NCBI GenBank assembly: GCA_963804975.1
Contig: CAWDSG010000002.1
Coordinates: 341,015-405,014, forward strand
DNA from: an uncultured bacterium
Lineage (GTDB): Bacteria > Patescibacteriota > Minisyncoccia > Phycocordibacterales > GWA1-40-21
Length of the DNA: 64,000 bases
Direction: 5' to 3'
The translations under genes were made by a program, and so were the position numbers. The notes below the pieces were generated by a model. It was not told the origin of the DNA. It ran no database searches and saw nothing but the letters and a program-made list of their open reading frames with translations. Below are positions 9,191 to 59,469 of the stretch, piece by piece; the stretch's first letter is position 1, and every line of letters starts with the position of its first letter.

Positions 9191-9697
9191 ATGATAGAAC
9201 TTATAACAACGTCGTTTTTCGTTTTCTCATCTATCTATGGAGGGCCGACAGGAGCTGTGGCAGATAATCAAGCTGCAACTTCTCCGGAACCTACGATAGC
9301 TAAAGAGGCGACAACGACCACAAACCTGCCTACCGGCCAGGCAGGAATACCGACAAACGAAGGAATCAAAGCTAAAGCGATAGCTTACTTCAAAAACACG
9401 CCGATACTTGCGGATATTGCCGGATGCGAATCAAGATTCAGGCAGTATGACAAGAACGGCAAAGTATTGATTGGCGAGGTCAATAAAGGCGATATCGGAG
9501 TCATGCAGATAAACAAATATTATCATGCAGACAAAGCGGAATCGCTCGGTTATGACCTCAATACTGCGGAAGGCAATATGGCATATGCCAAGTATCTCTA
9601 TGAGAAGGAAGGCACAAAGCCATGGAATTCGTCATCGGCTTGCTGGAAAGGAGGAGATACGCAATCTTCCTCGACAGATCAGGTCGCAATGAGATAA
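9191..9697 (+). CDS. secreted Rpf-like / lysozyme-like transglycosylase-domain protein
   Basis: 'IAGCESRFRQY...GDIGVMQINKYYH...KPWNSSSACW' resembles the resuscitation-promoting-factor transglycosylase-like domain (AxCES ... G.MQ ... W...C). Track ORF begins with TTG at 9131; ATG 9191 gives a signal-peptide-like N-terminus. Confidence 0.55.
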   Translation: MIELITTSFFVFSSIYGGPTGAVADNQAATSPEPTIAKEATTTTNLPTGQAGIPTNEGIKAKAIAYFKNTPILADIAGCESRFRQYDKNGKVLIGEVNKGDIGVMQINKYYHADKAESLGYDLNTAEGNMAYAKYLYEKEGTKPWNSSSACWKGGDTQSSSTDQVAMR

Positions 9698-9810
9698 AAG
9701 CTCGCTCGGATATTCAATTTTGAGATCCGCATAATTTTCTGCTGAAAATTTGCTCAGGACTTGTGCCGTCGCACTCCGTAGCTCTCAAAATTGAATGTCC
9801 TCGCTCGTGC
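9698..9810 (+). repeat. long-hairpin intergenic element, copy B
   Basis: Starts at base after stop (9695-9697); 20-bp arms ggatattcaattttgagatc (9708-9727) / gctctcaaaattgaatgtcc (9781-9800); loop has ATTTTCTGCTGAAAAT and GCCGTCGCaCTCCgTAG; flanked by ctcgctc direct repeats. Confidence 0.85.
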
Positions 9811-40095: not shown

Positions 40096-41022
40096 ATGAA
40101 AACAAAAAAATTACTCAATTCATTTGTTGTTCTCTCGGTTCTTTTTGGCTTGGTTATGGCAAACACAGCGCTTGCGAACGATAATGGCCAGAATAATTCC
40201 CAGAATAAACCTGAAAAAGTGAATAATAACGGAGGTTTTTTGGGCGGACTTTGGAACGGCTTCTTAAATCGCACAAAAGCCAGCGGTAATAGCAATGCCG
40301 AAAGAGCAAATATTATTTCAGGCATGGTTTCTTCTGTGAGTGGCAACACGATAACAGTTTCTGTTGTGGAAAGGAAACTTCTTAATGTCCCGGCAAATAG
40401 ATATTTCGGTACGAGTACGAGACAGGAATATGGTTCAAGTACAAAACCGATGTTCGGTACGAGTACGAGGCCGGAATTTAATAAAAATATGAAGCCGGAA
40501 ATTTCAACAAGCACTGTTTTGTACTCGGTAGATGCGACAAACGCAAAAATTTACGAAGGCAGAGCGACGACAACGGTTTCAAATATAGCTGTCGGAGATG
40601 TGATTTGGGTTCAAGGCAAAGTGACAGATCAGAATGTGGCAGCCAAAGTGATATTAGTTATGGCAAAAAATCCTATTCCTAAAAAAGGAAATGAAGGGAA
40701 AAATAATCAATTTATCGGAGATGGCCAGCCGATAGTGGCAGGAACGATTTCTTCAATAAGCGCTTCCTCACTGACAATTACAAACAGCGGAAATAATACC
40801 TATACAGTTGACATAACGAGTGCAAAAATATTCGAAGGAAATAAAACCGCTTCATCATCGGATTTGGCAGTCGGCGATGCGGTAGTCGTCCAAGGCACTG
40901 TGAATGGGACTTCAATTACTGCTTCAAGCGTCATTGGCCAGAATGCAAAAGCGGAAAAAGGAGAATCAATGGGATTTTTCGGATCCATCGGCTCATTCTT
41001 CTCCAGATTATTTAAGTTTTAA
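40096..41022 (+). CDS. secreted repeat protein (DUF5666-like beta-rich repeats)
   Basis: Signal peptide 'MKTKKLLNSFVVLSVLFGLVMANTALA'; three repeats of 'G.V.S.SGNTITV ... VGD.V.VQG.V'; internal tandem 'FGTSTR(Q/P)E'; divergent from ECF sigma gene. Confidence 0.55.
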   Translation: MKTKKLLNSFVVLSVLFGLVMANTALANDNGQNNSQNKPEKVNNNGGFLGGLWNGFLNRTKASGNSNAERANIISGMVSSVSGNTITVSVVERKLLNVPANRYFGTSTRQEYGSSTKPMFGTSTRPEFNKNMKPEISTSTVLYSVDATNAKIYEGRATTTVSNIAVGDVIWVQGKVTDQNVAAKVILVMAKNPIPKKGNEGKNNQFIGDGQPIVAGTISSISASSLTITNSGNNTYTVDITSAKIFEGNKTASSSDLAVGDAVVVQGTVNGTSITASSVIGQNAKAEKGESMGFFGSIGSFFSRLFKF

Positions 41023-41037
41023 TCCCGATTGAAAGCT

Positions 41038-41075
41038 GTTGACAAAAACCCCGAGGTTAAACCTCGGGGTTTTTC
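41038..41075. terminator. GC-rich palindromic unit acting as bidirectional terminator (copy P1)
   Basis: gttgacaaaaaCCCCGAGGttaaaCCTCGGGGttttt; convergent genes on both sides. Confidence 0.8.
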
Positions 41076-45644: not shown

Positions 45645-45682
45645 ATTAGATTAGAAAGTATAACAAAACTAAATTTAATTTG

Positions 45683-45753
45683 CTGCGGGGCTTGGAATCG
45701 AACCAAGATACCAGCCTCCAAAGGGCCGTGTCCTACCGTTAGACGATCCCGCA
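45683..45753 (-). tRNA. tRNA-Gln (anticodon UUG)
   Basis: Reverse complement UGCGGGAUC GUCU-AACGGUA-GGAC A CGGCC-CUUUGGA-GGCUG GUAU CUUGG-UUCGAUU-CCAAG CCCCGCA G folds as cloverleaf; U1-A72 and G73 typical of tRNA-Gln; one A-C mismatch at 7-66; CCA not encoded. Confidence 0.8.
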
Positions 45754-45912: not shown

Positions 45913-46167
45913 ATGGCAAATAAAAATTCTGCGTTTATGAAGCCTTTGAATGTAAGTGCTGACCTTGCCAAGGTAGTCGGCGCCGGCCCGATGCCGAGAT
46001 CCGAAGTCGTAAAAAAGCTTTGGGTTTATATCAAAGGAAAGAATCTTCAGGATCCGAAGAATAAGAGAAATATAAACGCCGATGCAAATTTGAAAGCGGT
46101 TTTTGGAGGCAAGGCGGTGGTCAATATGTTTGAAATGACCAAGCTCGTCTCAAAGCACTTATCATAA
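45913..46167 (+). CDS. SWIB/MDM2-domain protein
   Basis: 'MPRSEVVKKLWVYIKGKNLQDPKNKRNINADANLKAVFGGKAVVNMFEMTKLVSKHL' matches the SWIB/MDM2 pattern closely; 84 aa. Confidence 0.8.
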   Translation: MANKNSAFMKPLNVSADLAKVVGAGPMPRSEVVKKLWVYIKGKNLQDPKNKRNINADANLKAVFGGKAVVNMFEMTKLVSKHLS

Positions 46168-46238: not shown

Positions 46239-47276
46239 CTATTTTCCTGAATCTATCAATCTGTTCAGTACCAGTTCAAGCGGCAGCTCCGGAATATAGG
46301 CCTTTGTTTCCATGTCATAGTATGACAAAAGCGTAAGTAAGGTATCGGAATTAATCTTTGAGGGTTTTTTATCGGCAAGGTTTTTTAAAAATACAAAATC
46401 GGTATCGGTCATTTCTTCTGCAAGCTTGTCAGCTGAACTTTTCAAATTTCTCAAAAGCAAAACTGCGCGCATTTTATGCAGGATCAGTTTGAAGTATAAA
46501 AGCATATCAATGTTCAGTTCCGTTGCCTGCCCGATTGCTTTCAATCCGATTTCAAGATTATTTTCATCTATCGCTCTTATGAAATCATTCACTAGTTCGG
46601 CCCTCGGCGCGCCTGCGACAAGCTCAACTTCAGGAAGCGTGATTTTATTGTCTTTTGACGCGCTCATAACTTTTTGCAGAATGCTCTGTGCGTCGCGGAA
46701 AGAACCATCGCCGAGAAGTGCAACAAGCTCGCATGACGCGCTGTCTATGCTGAATTTCTCTTTTTTTGCGATTGCCACCACAGTATCTTTGAGCATTTTT
46801 TGTGTCGGTTTCCTGAATGAAAATGTCTGGCATCTTGAAATAATCGTCTCGGGAATCTTGCTCGGTTCTGTCGTGGCAAAAATAAAAATGACATATTTGG
46901 GCGGTTCCTCGATTGTTTTCAAAAGCGCGTTCCAGGCCTGTTTTGAAAGCATATGAGCTTCATCCAATATATAAACCTTGTATTTTGACTCATATGGAAG
47001 AGTGCTGACAGATTCGTTCAGGGCGCGGATATCATCTACGCCGGTATTTGAAGCTGCGTCAATTTCAACAATATCGATTGCGGAGGTGCCGATTTCTTTT
47101 GCAAAAATCCTGGCAACGCTTGTTTTGCCTGTGCCTCGACTTCCAGAAAAAATATAAGCGTGGGCAATATTGCCGAGTTTGATACTGGATTGCAGAACCT
47201 TCACGATATGATCCTGCCCAAAAATCTCATTGAAATTTTTAGGGCGATATTTTCTGTATAAAGCTGTTTCCGACAT
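46239..47276 (-). CDS. dnaX: DNA polymerase III gamma/tau subunit (short form)
   Basis: 'YRPKNFNEIFGQDHIVKVL...HAYIFSGSRGTGKTSVARIFAKEI' AAA+ clamp-loader motifs; 345 aa. Confidence 0.8.
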   Translation of the reverse strand: MSETALYRKYRPKNFNEIFGQDHIVKVLQSSIKLGNIAHAYIFSGSRGTGKTSVARIFAKEIGTSAIDIVEIDAASNTGVDDIRALNESVSTLPYESKYKVYILDEAHMLSKQAWNALLKTIEEPPKYVIFIFATTEPSKIPETIISRCQTFSFRKPTQKMLKDTVVAIAKKEKFSIDSASCELVALLGDGSFRDAQSILQKVMSASKDNKITLPEVELVAGAPRAELVNDFIRAIDENNLEIGLKAIGQATELNIDMLLYFKLILHKMRAVLLLRNLKSSADKLAEEMTDTDFVFLKNLADKKPSKINSDTLLTLLSYYDMETKAYIPELPLELVLNRLIDSGK

Positions 47277-47340
47277 ATTGGCTAGATTATATCATTTTAT
47301 TAAAATTACGGAATCCAAAACTAATTTTTAGACAAAAAGA

Positions 47341-47390
47341 AAACCGACCCACCTCTCTCTCGTTAGAGTTTGAAGGGTCGGCTTTTATTA
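47341..47390 (-). terminator. hairpin with U-tract (minus orientation) about 65 nt upstream of dnaX
   Basis: accgaccc / gggtcggc stem, loop with inner ctct/agag pairing, minus strand continues uuuucuuuuug. Confidence 0.45.
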
Positions 47391-47394
47391 ATGT

Positions 47395-47760
47395 TACACT
47401 AGGTCATAATGGAAACCTCCGGTTCCGTGCGAAATGAAACAGGTATTTACTGCACAGACCAATTAAGGTCTGTTGGCAAACCCGATCAATTGATTATTTA
47501 ATCGATTTTGATCTGTTCGCCGGGCCCCGGATTAGGCGATGGGGATGTCGGTCGCGCTGCTGGTCGTTTTCTTCCCAATAAAAATGGACTTCACGTCGAG
47601 ACTTCCTTCAAAGAACTGGGTCGCACGGCTTCTTCTCCTTTTGATTGGATCCAGCACATCTGTTCCAGATCCTCTCATTGAAATTGGTCCTGCAATAAAA
47701 GGATATCACCATTTACATTTTTTGTCAAATGTTTTGTAATGTTTTTCTGTGGATTACTCA
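47395..47760 (-). ncRNA. candidate structured ncRNA in GC-rich island (class unresolved)
   Basis: GC about 60 percent over 47515-47600 versus about 35-40 percent elsewhere; no convincing ORF; terminated by hairpin at 47341-47390. Confidence 0.25.
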
Positions 47761-47771
47761 GAAATACGGCT

Positions 47772-48746
47772 TTATTTAAGGTTTTTTAGGAATGCATTAA
47801 TTATTTTAATAGCTTCATCTTTATTATCCGCTGACATCAGTTTTATCCTCAACTCTTTAGCACCGTCAAACCCACCGACATAGGCCTTGAAATGTTTTTT
47901 CATAACAGCAAAGTTCTTATGTTTGCCCAAAAGCTTGTCAAAAAGCTTGGTATGTTCTACAAGCGCTTCCAGTTTTTCTTTTATTGTAGGTTCAGTTGTT
48001 TTTTTATCATTAAAAAACCAAGGGTTGCCAAAAACTCCCCTGCCGACCATTATTCCATCAAACCCAGTTTCAATTGCTTTCTCTCTTCCCTCTTCCAAGC
48101 TTTTAATATCTCCATTTGCAATCAATACGACATTTTTATCAATTACTCGCACAGTTTTCACAATATCTTTCGCAAGTTCCCAGTGTGCCGGAACATCCGA
48201 TATTTCTTTTTTTGTCCGCAGATGAATTATCAGAGTCGAAATATTTTCTTTCAATATTTCCGGAAGCCAAGTTTTATATTCAAGCGAATTGTAGCCAAGG
48301 CGGGTTTTCACCGATATTGGCAAATGCGGAGCGCCCTCCTTAGCAGCACGGATAATTTCTCTTGCGAGCTTCGGAGTTCTGATCAAGCTCGCGCCTGCGC
48401 CTTGGCTGACGACAGATTTATCCGGGCATCCCATATTTATATCAATGCCGTCAAAACCAAGACCTCCGAGATATTGGCACGCCTTTTTCATATTTTCCGG
48501 ATTAGCGCCAAAAACTTGAACAACGATCGGATGTTCGTTATGCGAATATTCCAAGATATGCGAAAGATTTTTCCTTGCCAATTTATTGCACAGGCCATCC
48601 GCAGCAATGAATTCCGTCCAAAAAACATCCGGCTTTCCGAATCTGACAAGCATTTTGCGGAAAGCGCAGTCTGTTACATCTGACATCGGCGCAAGACAAA
48701 AGAAAGGTTTTTTAGATTTTGAAATTATTTGCCAGAAATTCGACAT
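47772..48746 (-). CDS. dus: tRNA-dihydrouridine synthase
   Basis: 'FCLAPMSDVTDCAFRKM' N-terminus, 'MGCP' catalytic Cys; 324 aa. Confidence 0.85.
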   Translation of the reverse strand: MSNFWQIISKSKKPFFCLAPMSDVTDCAFRKMLVRFGKPDVFWTEFIAADGLCNKLARKNLSHILEYSHNEHPIVVQVFGANPENMKKACQYLGGLGFDGIDINMGCPDKSVVSQGAGASLIRTPKLAREIIRAAKEGAPHLPISVKTRLGYNSLEYKTWLPEILKENISTLIIHLRTKKEISDVPAHWELAKDIVKTVRVIDKNVVLIANGDIKSLEEGREKAIETGFDGIMVGRGVFGNPWFFNDKKTTEPTIKEKLEALVEHTKLFDKLLGKHKNFAVMKKHFKAYVGGFDGAKELRIKLMSADNKDEAIKIINAFLKNLK

Positions 48747-48805
48747 ATGTGATGCAAAGATAGCATTACTTTACGTGGAGGTCAAAAAAATGCTAATCTT
48801 TATAT

Positions 48806-50294: not shown

Positions 50295-51227
50295 ATGTTT
50301 AATAAAAATATAAAAACGGCTTTCTTTGGCAATTCGGAATTTTCTCTGATTGTACTTCTCGAGCTTAAAAAACTCGGTTTTTTGCCTGATATTGTAGTTA
50401 CCACTCCCGACAAGCCGGTTGGCAGAAAAATGATTCTTACGCCGACACAGACGAAGGTTTGGGCGCAGGACAATTCAATAGAATATATTGAACCGGTAAA
50501 ACTGAAAGATGAAAGTTTTCTAGAAAAGATGAAAGAATACAATCTTTTTATCGTTGCTTCCTACGGGAAAATAATCCCGAAAGCACTTATTGATATTCCT
50601 AAATATAAAGCGCTTAATATTCATCCTTCGCTTCTGCCGAAATATCGCGGTCCATCGCCCTTGCAGGAGCAGATTTTAAATAATGAGAAAAATGTCGGTG
50701 TTTCAATAATGCTTATAGACGAACAAATGGATCACGGGGCGATTTTGGCACAAAAAAAAGTGGACCTACCTGACCGGCAGGCAGGAATCCCTTCTTGGCC
50801 CGTTGGTTTTAATGAATTGTCTGAAATTCTAGGAAAAGAAGGTGCTAAGTTGTTGATGAAAATTTTACCGGAATGGATAAAAGGCAAGATCAAGCCGAAG
50901 GAACAAAATCACAGCGAAGCGACTTTTACAAAAAAAGTTGAAAAGCAGGACGGACTAATAATCTGTCCCGATGTCTCACATCAGGAAAATGTTGATAAAA
51001 ACCCCGAGGTTAAACCTCGGGGAAACGAAACATATAAAGATTATTTGAAATATTTGGCCTATGAAGATTGGCCGGGAACATATTTTGAAGCTACGCACAA
51101 TGGTAAAAAATTGAAAGTTATCGTTAAAAAAGCTGTTTGGAAAGATGATGAACTTGAAATTCTCCGCGTTGTTCCGGAAGGTAAAAAAGAGATGGATTAT
51201 AAGGACTTTTTGCGAGGCTTAAGATAA
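50295..51227 (+). CDS. fmt: methionyl-tRNA formyltransferase
   Basis: 'HPSLLPKYRGPSPLQ' SLLP motif; 310 aa. Contains an in-frame copy of the CCCCGAGG palindromic unit at 50991-51022. Confidence 0.9.
   Translation: MFNKNIKTAFFGNSEFSLIVLLELKKLGFLPDIVVTTPDKPVGRKMILTPTQTKVWAQDNSIEYIEPVKLKDESFLEKMKEYNLFIVASYGKIIPKALIDIPKYKALNIHPSLLPKYRGPSPLQEQILNNEKNVGVSIMLIDEQMDHGAILAQKKVDLPDRQAGIPSWPVGFNELSEILGKEGAKLLMKILPEWIKGKIKPKEQNHSEATFTKKVEKQDGLIICPDVSHQENVDKNPEVKPRGNETYKDYLKYLAYEDWPGTYFEATHNGKKLKVIVKKAVWKDDELEILRVVPEGKKEMDYKDFLRGLR
50991..51022. repeat. GC-rich palindromic unit, copy P2, embedded in-frame in fmt
   Basis: gttgataaaaaCCCCGAGGttaaaCCTCGGGG identical over 31/32 nt to P1; no T-run. Confidence 0.8.
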
Positions 51228-53150: not shown

Positions 53151-53495
53151 ATGCGTAAAGACAGAGCGAGAGCAGAGCGAAATATAAAAAATTTAATAAA
53201 AAAAGTAGTTGGCAGCTTAGCCGGTAAAAGGAAGTTGCCGAGACAACCTATTATTAATGTCAGGCAGGAACTTGCAGATGGAATAAGTATTACGATTGAT
53301 TCGCAAAAAAATAGCGGTAAGCATCCAGGCATAACTTATAGTGTGATTATTGAAAACGAAATTCCTGGACGCAAATCACTATTAATCTCAAAATTTACTG
53401 AGTCCGAAATTTTAAGAGCCTTTCTGCTGGGGCTTTGGTCATTAGGAGTTGTGAATAATTGCAATGATATTTCATCTATTGAAATTCCTTCCTGA
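53151..53495 (+). CDS. hypothetical protein
   Basis: 114 aa; basic N-terminus; terminator downstream. Confidence 0.4.
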   Translation: MRKDRARAERNIKNLIKKVVGSLAGKRKLPRQPIINVRQELADGISITIDSQKNSGKHPGITYSVIIENEIPGRKSLLISKFTESEILRAFLLGLWSLGVVNNCNDISSIEIPS

Positions 53496-53520
53496 ACAAA
53501 AGAATAATTTTATAAAAATT

Positions 53521-53550
53521 AACCCCGGTGTTTAGTCGCCGGGGTTTTTA
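53521..53550 (+). terminator. rho-independent terminator
   Basis: aaccccgg / ccggggtt stem then ttttta. Confidence 0.7.
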
Positions 53551-53713
53551 TTCAAATATTCGCTAAAAAAGCTTTATTTTATCCGCACGGATGCGTTATT
53601 TGTTATCAACAGGATTTTTGAATGCCTGTTTGACTATTTTTAAAAAGGATATAAAATTAACAAAGATATAGTCGATTATCATTATAATTATTAATTATAA
53701 AAAATATAAATAA

Positions 53714-55640: not shown

Positions 55641-56219
55641 TTGCTAAAACAATTCCCTACCGATATTGTTTCTGATATCATATCTTTTATGCCTAAGCAC
55701 AAAATTCTTCAAAAGAAATTTTTTGACAGGTCGGTTTTGAAAGTGGCGCTTGAACTTTTGGGAAAATATCTGGTGCGGCGAAATTCTCGCGGCAAAACAG
55801 TGGAATATATGATTACCGAAGTTGAAGCTTATGACAGCGAAAAGGATTTGGCATGCCATGCGTCAAAAGGAAGAACCGAAAGAAACGAAACGATGTACGG
55901 ACCGGCTAGATATTGGTATGTTTATCTTTGCTACGGAATGTATTATATGCTTAATATTGTTACAGGTAAAAAGAATTATCCATCGGCGATATTGATCCGC
56001 GAACTGTCGAAAATGAAAGGTCCGGGAATAATTACTCGGGAACTTAGCATTAAAAAAGAGTTAAACGGAAAAATTGCATCGCCGAAATCCGGCCTTTGGA
56101 TTGAAGACCGCGGAATAAGAATTTCAAAAAAAGATATTGTCCAAACGCAGAGAATCGGCGTAGAGTATGCCGGAAAATGGGCCAAAAAACCATATCGTTT
56201 CGTTTTAAAAAATAGTTGA
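55641..56219 (+). CDS. mpg: DNA-3-methyladenine glycosylase (Mpg/AAG family)
   Basis: 'YMITEVEAYDSEKDLACHASKGRTERNETMYGPARYWYVYLCYGMYYMLNIVT' matches Mpg core; 192 aa. Confidence 0.85.
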   Translation: MLKQFPTDIVSDIISFMPKHKILQKKFFDRSVLKVALELLGKYLVRRNSRGKTVEYMITEVEAYDSEKDLACHASKGRTERNETMYGPARYWYVYLCYGMYYMLNIVTGKKNYPSAILIRELSKMKGPGIITRELSIKKELNGKIASPKSGLWIEDRGIRISKKDIVQTQRIGVEYAGKWAKKPYRFVLKNS

Positions 56220-56255
56220 TAAAAACCCCGAGGTTTAACCTCGGGGGATTTTTAT
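56215..56255. terminator. GC-rich palindromic unit acting as terminator (copy P3)
   Basis: gttgataaaaaCCCCGAGGtttaaCCTCGGGGgattttta; mpg stop TGA lies inside the conserved GTTGAT flank. Confidence 0.8.
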
Positions 56256-58241: not shown

Positions 58242-59356
58242 AAAAGAAGAAAACTTTTTTAAAAAATCCTTATGTATGGCTCTCGGCAAGCTTGCTTTAT
58301 TTGGCTGCAATCATAATTTGCGGATTTTTTAATGTTAAAACTTCTCCCGCCCAGACAGTTTCAAATATCGTAAAAGATATTTTTATTGCTCCAAAATATC
58401 CGCCGCTTAATATCGCCGATTACGATCTGCGCCTCGACAAGCTTGCGCATCTTTTGCCGAGAGACGCAACAAACACTCTGTCGCTTATCTCCACTTCAAC
58501 AGCGACTTCCACCGTCAATATCGCAACATCAACGCGTCTTTGGCCTGTACAAGCCCCGTATCCTCTGGATGGGGCAATTTTTCCTTTCAAACGCATCATC
58601 GCCTATTACGGAAATTATTATTCAAAAAATATGGGCGTACTTGGGCAATATCCGGCAGATGAAATGCTTTCCATGCTCCAAGCGGAAGTGAATAAATGGA
58701 ATCTTGCCGATCCCGGCACGCCTGCCTCACCTGCATTGCAATATATTGCGGTTACAGCCCAAGGGTATAAAGGCAATGACGGCAAATATCGCTCTAGAAT
58801 GCCGTCTGACCAGATAGATAAAACTATATCGCTTGCATCAGAGATAAACGGTATTGTCATTCTTGATGTGCAGATCGGGCAAAGCACGCTGGAAAACGAA
58901 ATTCCTCCTCTTCTAAAATATTTAAAGATGCCGCAAGTAAATCTCGCCATTGATCCGGAATTTGCGATGAAAGCAAGCCAAGTGCCTGGAGCCGAGTATG
59001 TCGGCACAATTGATGCAGTGGATATCAATTATGTGATAAATTTTCTCGCGAAGCTTGTAAAAGAATACGATCTTCCGCCGAAAATTCTGATAATCCACCG
59101 ATACAGGGAAAATATGGTTACCAATTATAAAGAAATTGAAAAGATACCCGAAGTGCAGGTTGTAATGAATATGGACGGCTGGGGCGATATCGGCGGCAAA
59201 ATGGCAATTTATCAGGAATATATAACGGATCAGCCGGTGCAGTTTGCCGGCATCAAGCTTTTTTATCACAATGACACTCTGGCGAGCAGCACTATGATGA
59301 CGCCGGATGAAATTTTGAAACTGACTCCTGAACCGATTTATATCCAGTATCAATAA
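58238..59356 (+). CDS. membrane-anchored extracytoplasmic hypothetical protein
   Basis: 372 aa, N-terminal TM; no family recognised; 4-nt overlap with aminotransferase. Confidence 0.5.
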   Translation: MKKKKTFLKNPYVWLSASLLYLAAIIICGFFNVKTSPAQTVSNIVKDIFIAPKYPPLNIADYDLRLDKLAHLLPRDATNTLSLISTSTATSTVNIATSTRLWPVQAPYPLDGAIFPFKRIIAYYGNYYSKNMGVLGQYPADEMLSMLQAEVNKWNLADPGTPASPALQYIAVTAQGYKGNDGKYRSRMPSDQIDKTISLASEINGIVILDVQIGQSTLENEIPPLLKYLKMPQVNLAIDPEFAMKASQVPGAEYVGTIDAVDINYVINFLAKLVKEYDLPPKILIIHRYRENMVTNYKEIEKIPEVQVVMNMDGWGDIGGKMAIYQEYITDQPVQFAGIKLFYHNDTLASSTMMTPDEILKLTPEPIYIQYQ

Positions 59357-59469
59357 AAGCTCACTCGGACATTTAATTTTGAGATCCGCATAATTTTCTG
59401 CTGAAAATTTGCTCAGGACTCATGCCGACGCATTCCGTAGCTCTCAAAATTAAATGTCCTCGCTCGCTG
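59357..59469 (+). repeat. long-hairpin intergenic element, copy C
   Basis: Starts at base after stop; arms ggacatttaattttgagatc (59367-59386) / gctctcaaaattaaatgtcc (59440-59459) perfectly complementary; about 90 percent identical to copy B with compensatory stem changes; fills the intergenic gap. Confidence 0.85.

Follow-up and report, generated by a model that had tools for sequence, protein, structure and literature searches.

A candidate orphan small RNA, possibly also encoding a peptide, between dus and dnaX in a Candidatus Paceibacterota genome

Introduction

Dual-function small RNAs, which also encode a short peptide, include SgrS/SgrT, RNAIII/delta-haemolysin and SR1/SR1P. Two other described arrangements are relevant here: the Bacillus-type gene for the signal recognition particle (SRP) RNA (scr/ffs) lies upstream of dnaX, and thrL is a leader-peptide attenuator with a leader rich in Thr and Ile. 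In this work we examine the gap between dus and dnaX in a 64-kb stretch of genomic DNA (contig CAWDSG010000002.1, positions 341,015 to 405,014; hereafter the window) from a member of Candidatus Paceibacterota, within the Candidate Phyla Radiation (CPR). A preliminary description of the window had singled out a GC-rich island in this gap as a candidate structured RNA and had suspected, by synteny, that it was an SRP RNA. We propose instead that the island may be a stand-alone orphan small RNA, possibly also peptide-encoding and in that case dual-function, a reading to which we assign roughly an even chance.

Like the dual-function small RNAs, the island is a predicted stand-alone promoter-to-terminator unit of a few hundred nucleotides (nt) that combines a short open reading frame (ORF) with a conserved structured domain, and it is lineage-restricted and fast-evolving. 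It differs from them in that it has no sequence or structural homology (Rfam) to any of them and is known here from sequence alone, and in that its conserved module is a 3′ hairpin domain whereas the peptide is poorly conserved. To our knowledge, almost no regulatory RNAs have been described in Paceibacterota, and our searches of the literature on Shine-Dalgarno sequences, leaderless genes, SRP RNA and non-coding RNA in CPR bacteria found nothing relevant.

Results and discussion

A promoter-to-terminator unit upstream of dnaX

The gap between dus and dnaX, which follow one another in this order on the minus strand, is 495 nt long (47277-47771). A sigma-70-type promoter was found on the minus strand at 47728-47700, with the -35 hexamer TTGACA (47728-47723), a 17-nt spacer and an extended -10 element, TGaTATCCT (47708-47700); it matches the consensus at 10 of 12 positions and carries the TG in addition. 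Transcription is predicted to start at about 47693 and to proceed on the minus strand to about 47335, giving an island RNA of approximately 355 nt. For comparison, 100 related loci were gathered through DnaX, and in two of these, L100 and L081, a promoter of the form TTGACAA(T/A)AAA ... TGnTAnCnT likewise follows the end of dus at the same position. In the folds, the predicted RNA has a hairpin close to its 5′ end, GGAUCUGG...CUGGAUCC (47647-47672, minus strand), at the relative place of which L100 and L081 have unrelated hairpins.

The unit closes with an intrinsic terminator on the minus strand (47334-47386), made of an 11-bp outer stem and an inner CUCU/AGAG stem, then UUUUCUUUUU. Its hairpin, AAAAGCCGACCC...GGGUCGGUUUU at 47340-47386, with a U-tract at 47334-47343, has a folding free energy (dG) of -22.9 kcal/mol and a z of -3.8, in agreement with the stem-loop and U-tract that had been noted before dnaX on this strand in the preliminary description. 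A consensus terminator scanner missed the hairpin solely because its loop is longer than 8 nt. The ATG of dnaX lies 58 nt past the end of the U-tract, and the stretch that runs from this tract to the promoter of dnaX aligns with L081, L100 and L087.

The downstream boundary of the island is set by an extended -10 box of dnaX, TGaTATAAT, which lies outside the island on the minus strand (47286-47294), 9 nt before the dnaX ATG at 47276. In 70 of 79 related loci, dnaX is preceded by a TATAAT or TATACT box that ends 6-10 nt short of the ATG, and none has a Shine-Dalgarno sequence upstream of dnaX. By this pattern dnaX is predicted to be leaderless, or nearly so, with its own promoter. Since this -10 box adjoins the ATG, the island would constitute a separate promoter-to-terminator unit of about 355 nt and no leader of dnaX. 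Overall, a promoter and an intrinsic terminator of its own within an intergenic region, the generic marks of a stand-alone small-RNA gene, are both predicted for the island from its sequence.

A conserved structured domain in the 3′ half

The 3′ half of the predicted RNA contains a structured non-coding domain (47410-47530, minus strand; fold z -4.2) that is kept in L087. This locus, a Logan contig which begins inside the island and shares its 3′ half, is the closest relative of the window; its DnaX is 85% identical to that of the window and is its sister in a neighbour-joining tree. The domain starts with a GC-rich palindrome, CCGGGGCCCGG (47530-47520), continues with three hairpins of the consensus fold of the window and L087 (H1, 47521-47475; H2, 47473-47454; H3, 47453-47439) and ends with the hairpin GGAACCGGAGGUUUCC (47426-47411), all on the minus strand. 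In blastn the two copies align over 119 nt with 85% identity (E ~1e-29), and counted per aligned column they are 90% identical, whereas the dnaX genes of the same two loci are 76.9% identical at the DNA level and 46.6% identical at four-fold degenerate sites. The difference between some 90% identity in the domain and 46.6% at the four-fold sites of dnaX places the domain under strong purifying selection. The two copies are separated by four indels, each of 1 nt, and the domain therefore cannot be coding.

The substitutions fit the predicted structure. Among the 37 consensus pairs of the window and L087 none is broken, six are changed on one side and one is changed on both sides; the one-sided changes are G-U<->G-C and A-U->G-U, for which pairing is possible only in the minus-strand RNA. 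In other words, the comparative covariation analysis that had been proposed for this locus left 37 of 37 pairs intact, on the two sequences available. Non-coding sequence under purifying selection with a substitution-supported structure, as expected of a small-RNA gene, is thus observed in these two sequences. The sequence anatomy, the pattern of conservation and the fit of the substitutions are in this respect direct observations.

The fold of the surrounding 3′ block (47395-47530) has a z of -4.2 on the minus strand and of -2.4 on the plus strand, and that of the 5′ half with the GC peak (47531-47693, minus strand) has a z of +0.39, like shuffled sequence. The structured RNA domain therefore sits beside the GC peak, not on it, and the earlier proposal of a structured RNA, while it stands for 47410-47530, fails for the GC-rich peak to which it was first attached.

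Short ORFs and Shine-Dalgarno motifs

The GC peak consists mostly of a 20-codon ORF, MKSIFIGKKTTSSATDIPIA (47532-47594, minus strand), which starts with GTG at 47594, stops with TAA at 47534-47532 and is preceded by a Shine-Dalgarno-like GAAGGAAG at 47609-47602. An in-frame ATG at 47678 would lengthen this ORF to 48 amino acids, and this extension has no counterpart in relatives. Fragmentary homologues of the 20-codon ORF were found in three relatives. Its N-terminus resembles MRSIFLRRISS of L081, with an identical TAATCC after the stop; its C-terminus and stop resemble ...ADIRIT* of L100 (CCGACATCCGCATCACCTAG); and a partial copy in L087, ..KKIDHPATATPLKI*, differs by in-frame indels of 6 nt and 3 nt. 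Its codon score falls at the 31st percentile of windows of 20 codons from real genes, and among non-coding frames free of stops it ranks in the top 7%. We consider this ORF to be probably translated on these sequence features. As a small-protein gene it displays a Shine-Dalgarno-like motif, shared termini and in-frame indels, but its peptide is poorly conserved.

Two further ORFs were noted on the minus strand. An 11-codon ORF, MRPSSLKEVST (GTG...TGA, 47591-47626), lies behind AAAGGAG (47641-47635), and its stop (TGA) and the start of the 20-codon ORF (GTG) overlap in the sequence GTGA. It contains the motif AGTTCTTTGAAGG (47617-47605), which also occurs in L081 and L094, outside any ORF there, and its codon score is poor (-0.15); it is probably not conserved as a coding sequence, judging by these comparisons. 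A mini-ORF, AUG ACC UAG (47399-47407), is found 8 nt downstream of GGAGG and reads AUG ACU UAG after GGAAGG in L087, where it is kept despite an intervening 2-nt indel. None of eight candidate ORFs of the gap was found in a collection of 15 billion proteins, a word-indexed search of 5.8 billion clusters gave no homologue of the 48- and 66-amino-acid ORFs of the gap, and Pfam and NCBIfam models had no match among the island peptides.

The Shine-Dalgarno-like motifs in front of these ORFs set the island apart from the genes around it. Only 2 of 58 long ORFs of the window have a Shine-Dalgarno-like 4-mer (GGAG, GAGG or AGGA) at -20 to -4, and a TAnn[AC]T box ends 5-10 nt before the start codon of about 17 of the 58; these motifs suggest that leaderless or Shine-Dalgarno-independent initiation is widespread in this genome. 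Examples of such gene starts lie at 47274-47300 (dnaX), 45645-45670 and 48747-48775. The island RNA has six strict Shine-Dalgarno-like 5-mers in sense and none in antisense orientation (shuffle mean 2.4, P = 0.045), a density of 16.7 per kb versus 4.0 per kb in genes. The dus-dnaX gaps of relatives have the same strand asymmetry, and across 17 of them an ATG follows 29% of the sense-strand sites at a distance of 4-10 nt, versus a background of 11% (P = 4e-5).

Proposed anatomy and points against it

Under the small-RNA reading, transcription from the sigma-70-type promoter just past the end of dus would yield a minus-strand RNA of about 355 nt (~47693 to ~47335), ending at the strong intrinsic terminator that precedes the promoter of dnaX itself. 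The unstructured 5′ half would offer short ORFs led by Shine-Dalgarno motifs, chiefly the 20-codon ORF, from which a fast-evolving peptide would be made. The main functional module would be the 3′ domain of three hairpins, under strong purifying selection; this could be the body of a small RNA with a protein or a second RNA as its binding partner, or it could serve to protect or regulate the transcript. The transcription and translation of the island RNA, and any target, we infer from features of the kind described above.

Several points weigh against this reading. The structured domain is known from one other genome only, L087, which is cut by a contig end, and the covariation is that of two sequences. 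The peptide of the 20-codon ORF is poorly conserved, with about 6 of 14 residues shared between the window and L087, and the ORF is short enough to be an open frame by chance. Its C-terminal block differs from that of L100 at first and second codon positions, as in conservation at the nucleotide rather than the protein level, and the AGTTCTTTGAAGG motif is kept whatever the reading frame. Core genes hardly carry Shine-Dalgarno sequences (the 2 of 58 given above), and use of the island motifs by the ribosomes is a prediction. Lastly, homologues of the island are scarce. Blastn and nhmmer searches with the island against 80 GTDB species-representative genomes gave no match, nor did phage and plasmid collections or pattern scans of JGI metagenomes with a codon-degenerate ORF end and a 21-mer of the conserved domain; a covariance model built from both known copies recovered only those two copies, the window's and that of L087, from 300 kb of related loci, and no paralogue of the island was found within the window.

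The dus-dnaX slot in related genomes

The order from dus to dnaX is kept in 77 of the first 90 related loci. No more than 17-60 nt separate the two genes in many relatives whose DnaX is 47-52% identical, and in one whose DnaX is 58% identical; gaps of 230 to 1300 nt or more are found in the closer clade. Even in L081, L083, L086 and L100, whose DnaX proteins are 81-84% identical to that of the window, the interior of the gap cannot be aligned with the window. What the window, L100 and L081 have in common is the first ~70 nt after the dus stop, with the promoter, and the end from the terminator to dnaX, the interior being replaced.

The relatives carry in this slot one to several promoter-to-terminator cassettes in tandem, and several of their micro-ORFs are conserved as coding sequence. 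A micro-ORF ending ...IRGPTK* is common to L081 (2008-2070) and L094 (174-232), with all three nucleotide differences synonymous; it is followed by the motif AGTTCTTTGAA, which recurs in the window island at 47605-47617. L001 has tandem paralogous ORFs of 7-11 codons (MNTPPNYSLFS, MNGPPSYLF and MADPFSF), each behind GGAGG. In addition, a 10-codon ORF of fixed length is common to L083 and L094, and a hairpin RNA of about 100 nt, common to L088 and L090, is an apparently purely non-coding cassette.

Some further features of the slot were recorded in passing. Positions 1-3000 of L001 (JBAZYH010000003.1), upstream of dnaX, form 3 kb with no ORF longer than 78 amino acids and contain the three tandem ORFs named above. 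A 22-codon ORF spotted there by eye, MKKTNHGTARAGPIWGYTLNLI, is unconfirmed and was not in the ORF scan list; its RAGP is reminiscent of the SecM arrest motif. Directly upstream of dnaX in L013 (2683-3000) and L016 (2683-2998) lies a promoter-to-terminator unit with a shared stretch of 321 nt, 85% identical, which is GC-rich, has no Rfam match and carries, immediately ahead of the terminator, an ORF of 5 codons with a Shine-Dalgarno-like motif. The unit is a candidate for another small RNA in the dus-dnaX slot.

Taken as read from these loci, the dus-dnaX slot is a predicted hotspot of small promoter-to-terminator cassettes in which micro-ORFs and structured RNA are mixed. It resembles variable small-gene and small-RNA islands in having conserved flanks (dus, promoter, terminator, dnaX) and a hypervariable, mosaic interior. 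Unlike these, it has no integrase, repeats or att-like sites that we could see, and its cassettes are rich in Shine-Dalgarno motifs whereas the core genes are without them.

Searches for known RNA families

At gathering thresholds Rfam found only two tRNAs in the whole 64-kb window, and ARAGORN likewise found two tRNAs and no tmRNA. At E<=10, the region 47200-47850 (651 nt) gave no SRP RNA, tmRNA, RNase P RNA or 6S RNA, only look-alikes of terminators; the SRP part of this result is without a positive control, detection of Paceibacteria SRP RNAs by the Rfam SRP models being unconfirmed. Across 41 related dus-dnaX loci tRNA was the sole family above its gathering score, and in the gaps of 11 of these loci nothing credible appeared at E<=5. 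The scan for these four families that had been suggested for the island was thus carried out and yielded no family match, and the initial impression that signatures of tmRNA and RNase P RNA are missing is borne out.

A tmRNA, with its tRNA-like domain and tag ORF, was accordingly rejected on the negative ARAGORN and Rfam results. RNase P RNA and 6S RNA were set aside as they had no match at E<=10 and the predicted fold is multi-hairpin, not a rod. A sponge of the CsrB/RsmZ type was also rejected: the island has 9 GGA versus 8.6 expected in dinucleotide shuffles, which is no enrichment. No CsrA was found among ten window ORFs of 72-99 amino acids that were scanned, two ORFs of 64 amino acids being left out. 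A type I toxin-antitoxin system was discarded in view of the hydrophilic sense-strand peptides; the hydrophobic 66-amino-acid ORF of the plus strand has no homologue, promoter or Shine-Dalgarno motif.

Alternative explanations

The alternative that survives best, possible though somewhat doubtful in our estimation, is a plain micro-ORF gene whose 20-residue (or 48-residue) peptide is the sole product, the hairpin domain serving with the terminator as a stabilising or regulatory 3′ untranslated region. It is in keeping with the recurrence of tiny Shine-Dalgarno-led ORFs in the slot (L081/L094, L083/L094 and L001), with the enrichment of ATG after Shine-Dalgarno-like sites and with the gene-like codon score of the ORF. 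What speaks against it is the distribution of conservation: the peptide shares only about 6 of 14 residues with L087, whereas the supposed untranslated region is about 90% identical, above dnaX (76.9% of nucleotides), and selection is strongest on the non-coding part. The lack of a protein homologue in the 5.8 billion clusters counts against it as well.

Much less probable is a cis-regulatory leader or attenuator of dnaX, in which translation of, or stalling on, the short ORF would set read-through of the terminator. As with thrL, a short ORF, here rich in Ser, Thr, Ile and Lys, is followed by hairpins and an intrinsic terminator directly upstream of a gene on the same strand, and as most genes here start without a Shine-Dalgarno sequence, a read-through transcript would be translatable in principle. 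Unlike in thrL, however, the promoter of dnaX is conserved and abuts its ATG, the -10 box being found in 70 of 79 relatives, those that lack the island among them. Furthermore, the terminator is some 145 nt from the ORF stop, no anti-terminator pairing with the 5′ arm of the terminator was seen in the folds, and the content of the island is swapped wholesale between close relatives while dnaX is constant.

We judge it unlikely to a similar degree that the island is what is left of an inserted gene or mobile cassette, now decaying and without a function today. In favour of this are the mosaic, quickly replaced content of the slot, which is a hotspot, and the coding-like GC content of the island. 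A phmmer search of 1.84 billion representatives also appeared to link the 48-amino-acid frame to giant NB-ARC/TPR proteins (E = 3e-12). We rejected this weak link as an artefact: the signal adds up at least seven hits to near-identical TPR_12 repeats, each worth about 25 bits and by itself well short of significance at the scale of the database, and the Pfam TPR models had no match to this ORF even at E<=10. A remnant is further at odds with a 3′ domain that is far more conserved than neutral sites, with the intact promoter and terminator and with the absence of phage or plasmid matches.

A DNA-level element, such as a replication origin, a partition site or a protein-binding site, in which the hairpins would be inverted repeats that are bound as double-stranded DNA, appears more improbable still. 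Cumulative GC skew is lowest at 46-48 kb, a 38-kb block of minus-strand genes gives way to plus-strand genes at the divergent dus/def pair at about 48.75 kb, H1 and H2 are near-palindromes with GATC, ATCGAT and CAATTG, and one DnaA-box-like 9-mer lies at 47748-47756. That 9-mer, with one mismatch, is the single such box in the gap and belongs to no cluster (the 64 kb have 25, versus 15.5 expected), and a chromosomal origin was rejected for want of a DnaA-box cluster in the gap despite the GC-skew minimum. The Pfam scan, which covered 29 ORFs of the window, turned up neither dnaA nor dnaN, and the gap is absent or unrelated in relatives. The stem substitutions moreover leave pairing intact in the minus-strand RNA, as G-U, whereas in DNA they produce mismatched G-T. 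Elsewhere in the window, three one-mismatch DnaA-box-like 9-mers fall within 160 nt (53450-53611), in and beside the intergenic region 53496-53656, and form its only small cluster.

Finally, we see a negligible probability that the island is a strongly diverged SRP RNA, or some other housekeeping RNA (RNase P RNA, tmRNA or 6S RNA), that the covariance models miss in CPR bacteria. The sole support for this reading is the Bacillus-type synteny and the size of the RNA, and it is opposed by the lack of any match at E<=10, of an ARAGORN tmRNA and of any family but tRNA in the 41 related loci, by the absence of the element from relatives with 81-84% identical DnaX, by gaps of 17-60 nt in many Paceibacteria and by a fold that is multi-hairpin and not a long rod. 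The island does share with Bacillus-type scr/ffs a non-coding, GC-enriched position directly upstream of dnaX on the same strand and a hairpin at its end. Unlike scr/ffs, it matches neither Bacteria_small_SRP nor Bacteria_large_SRP, the domain IV motif had not been found at the first reading, and the syntenic site is not conserved. The SRP assignment of the preliminary description is not supported because an essential RNA would not vary so between relatives, and we have abandoned it.

Flanking genes and other features of the window

The gap is bounded by dus (47772-48746, minus strand; Pfam Dus, 9e-58) and dnaX (46239-47276, minus strand; Pfam DNA_pol3_delta2, 1e-36). The GC content of 47515-47600 was measured as 58.1%, close to the 60 percent first estimated, versus 39.0% for the 64-kb window and 40.6% for the whole dus-dnaX gap; only 0.5% of 86-nt windows are as GC-rich. 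The window has 32 similar peaks, nearly all of them within genes, and its other intergenic gaps have a GC content of 28-41%. The peak therefore stands out from non-coding DNA but not from the genome at large. As had been remarked at the outset, there is no long ORF, the longest of the gap being 66 amino acids on the plus and 48 on the minus strand.

On the other side of dnaX, about 490 nt downstream, lies a tRNA-Gln (UUG) at 45682-45753 (minus strand); most relatives have a 71-nt tRNA there, identified by position and not by anticodon. The gene at 45913-46167, coding for a SWIB domain, is a frequent neighbour of dnaX in relatives.

Three kinds of repeat were recorded elsewhere in the window. 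A direct repeat of 114 nt, 93% identical, occurs at 9694-9807 and 59353-59466, each copy just 3′ of a plus-strand gene and with no Rfam match; it may be a repeated 3′ element or a small RNA. The element GTTGAYAAAAACCCCGAGGTT(T)AACCTCGGGG, a TTGACA-like hexamer fused to a perfect GC hairpin, is found on the plus strand at gene ends (41033-41069, 50986-51022 and 56210-56246). A fourth hit, on the minus strand at about 41042-41070, overlaps the first copy and probably represents that palindrome as seen from the opposite strand. A tandem repeat with a period of 24 nt occupies 40405-40497, inside the ORF 40096-41022.

Conclusions

The island between dus and dnaX adds a well-delimited candidate small-RNA or micro-ORF gene to the Paceibacterota. 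For annotation, it cautions that the call of an SRP RNA upstream of dnaX, tempting by synteny, would be wrong at this locus. On a wider and rather doubtful view, the dus-dnaX junction in one subclade of Paceibacteria might be a nursery of fast-turnover cassettes with strong promoters, holding Shine-Dalgarno-led micro-ORFs (2-30 codons) and structured RNA domains. If this were true, the cassettes, set among ordinary genes that are leaderless or have no Shine-Dalgarno sequence, would be a separate class of regulatory or signalling RNAs with a special mode of translation, giving for example peptides that sense the ribosome or are directed at a host cell, and the window island would be one of its members. 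Mini-cassettes rich in Shine-Dalgarno motifs, in a genome that by its sequence otherwise appears to avoid them, could inform the study of translation initiation and of small-gene turnover in reduced genomes.

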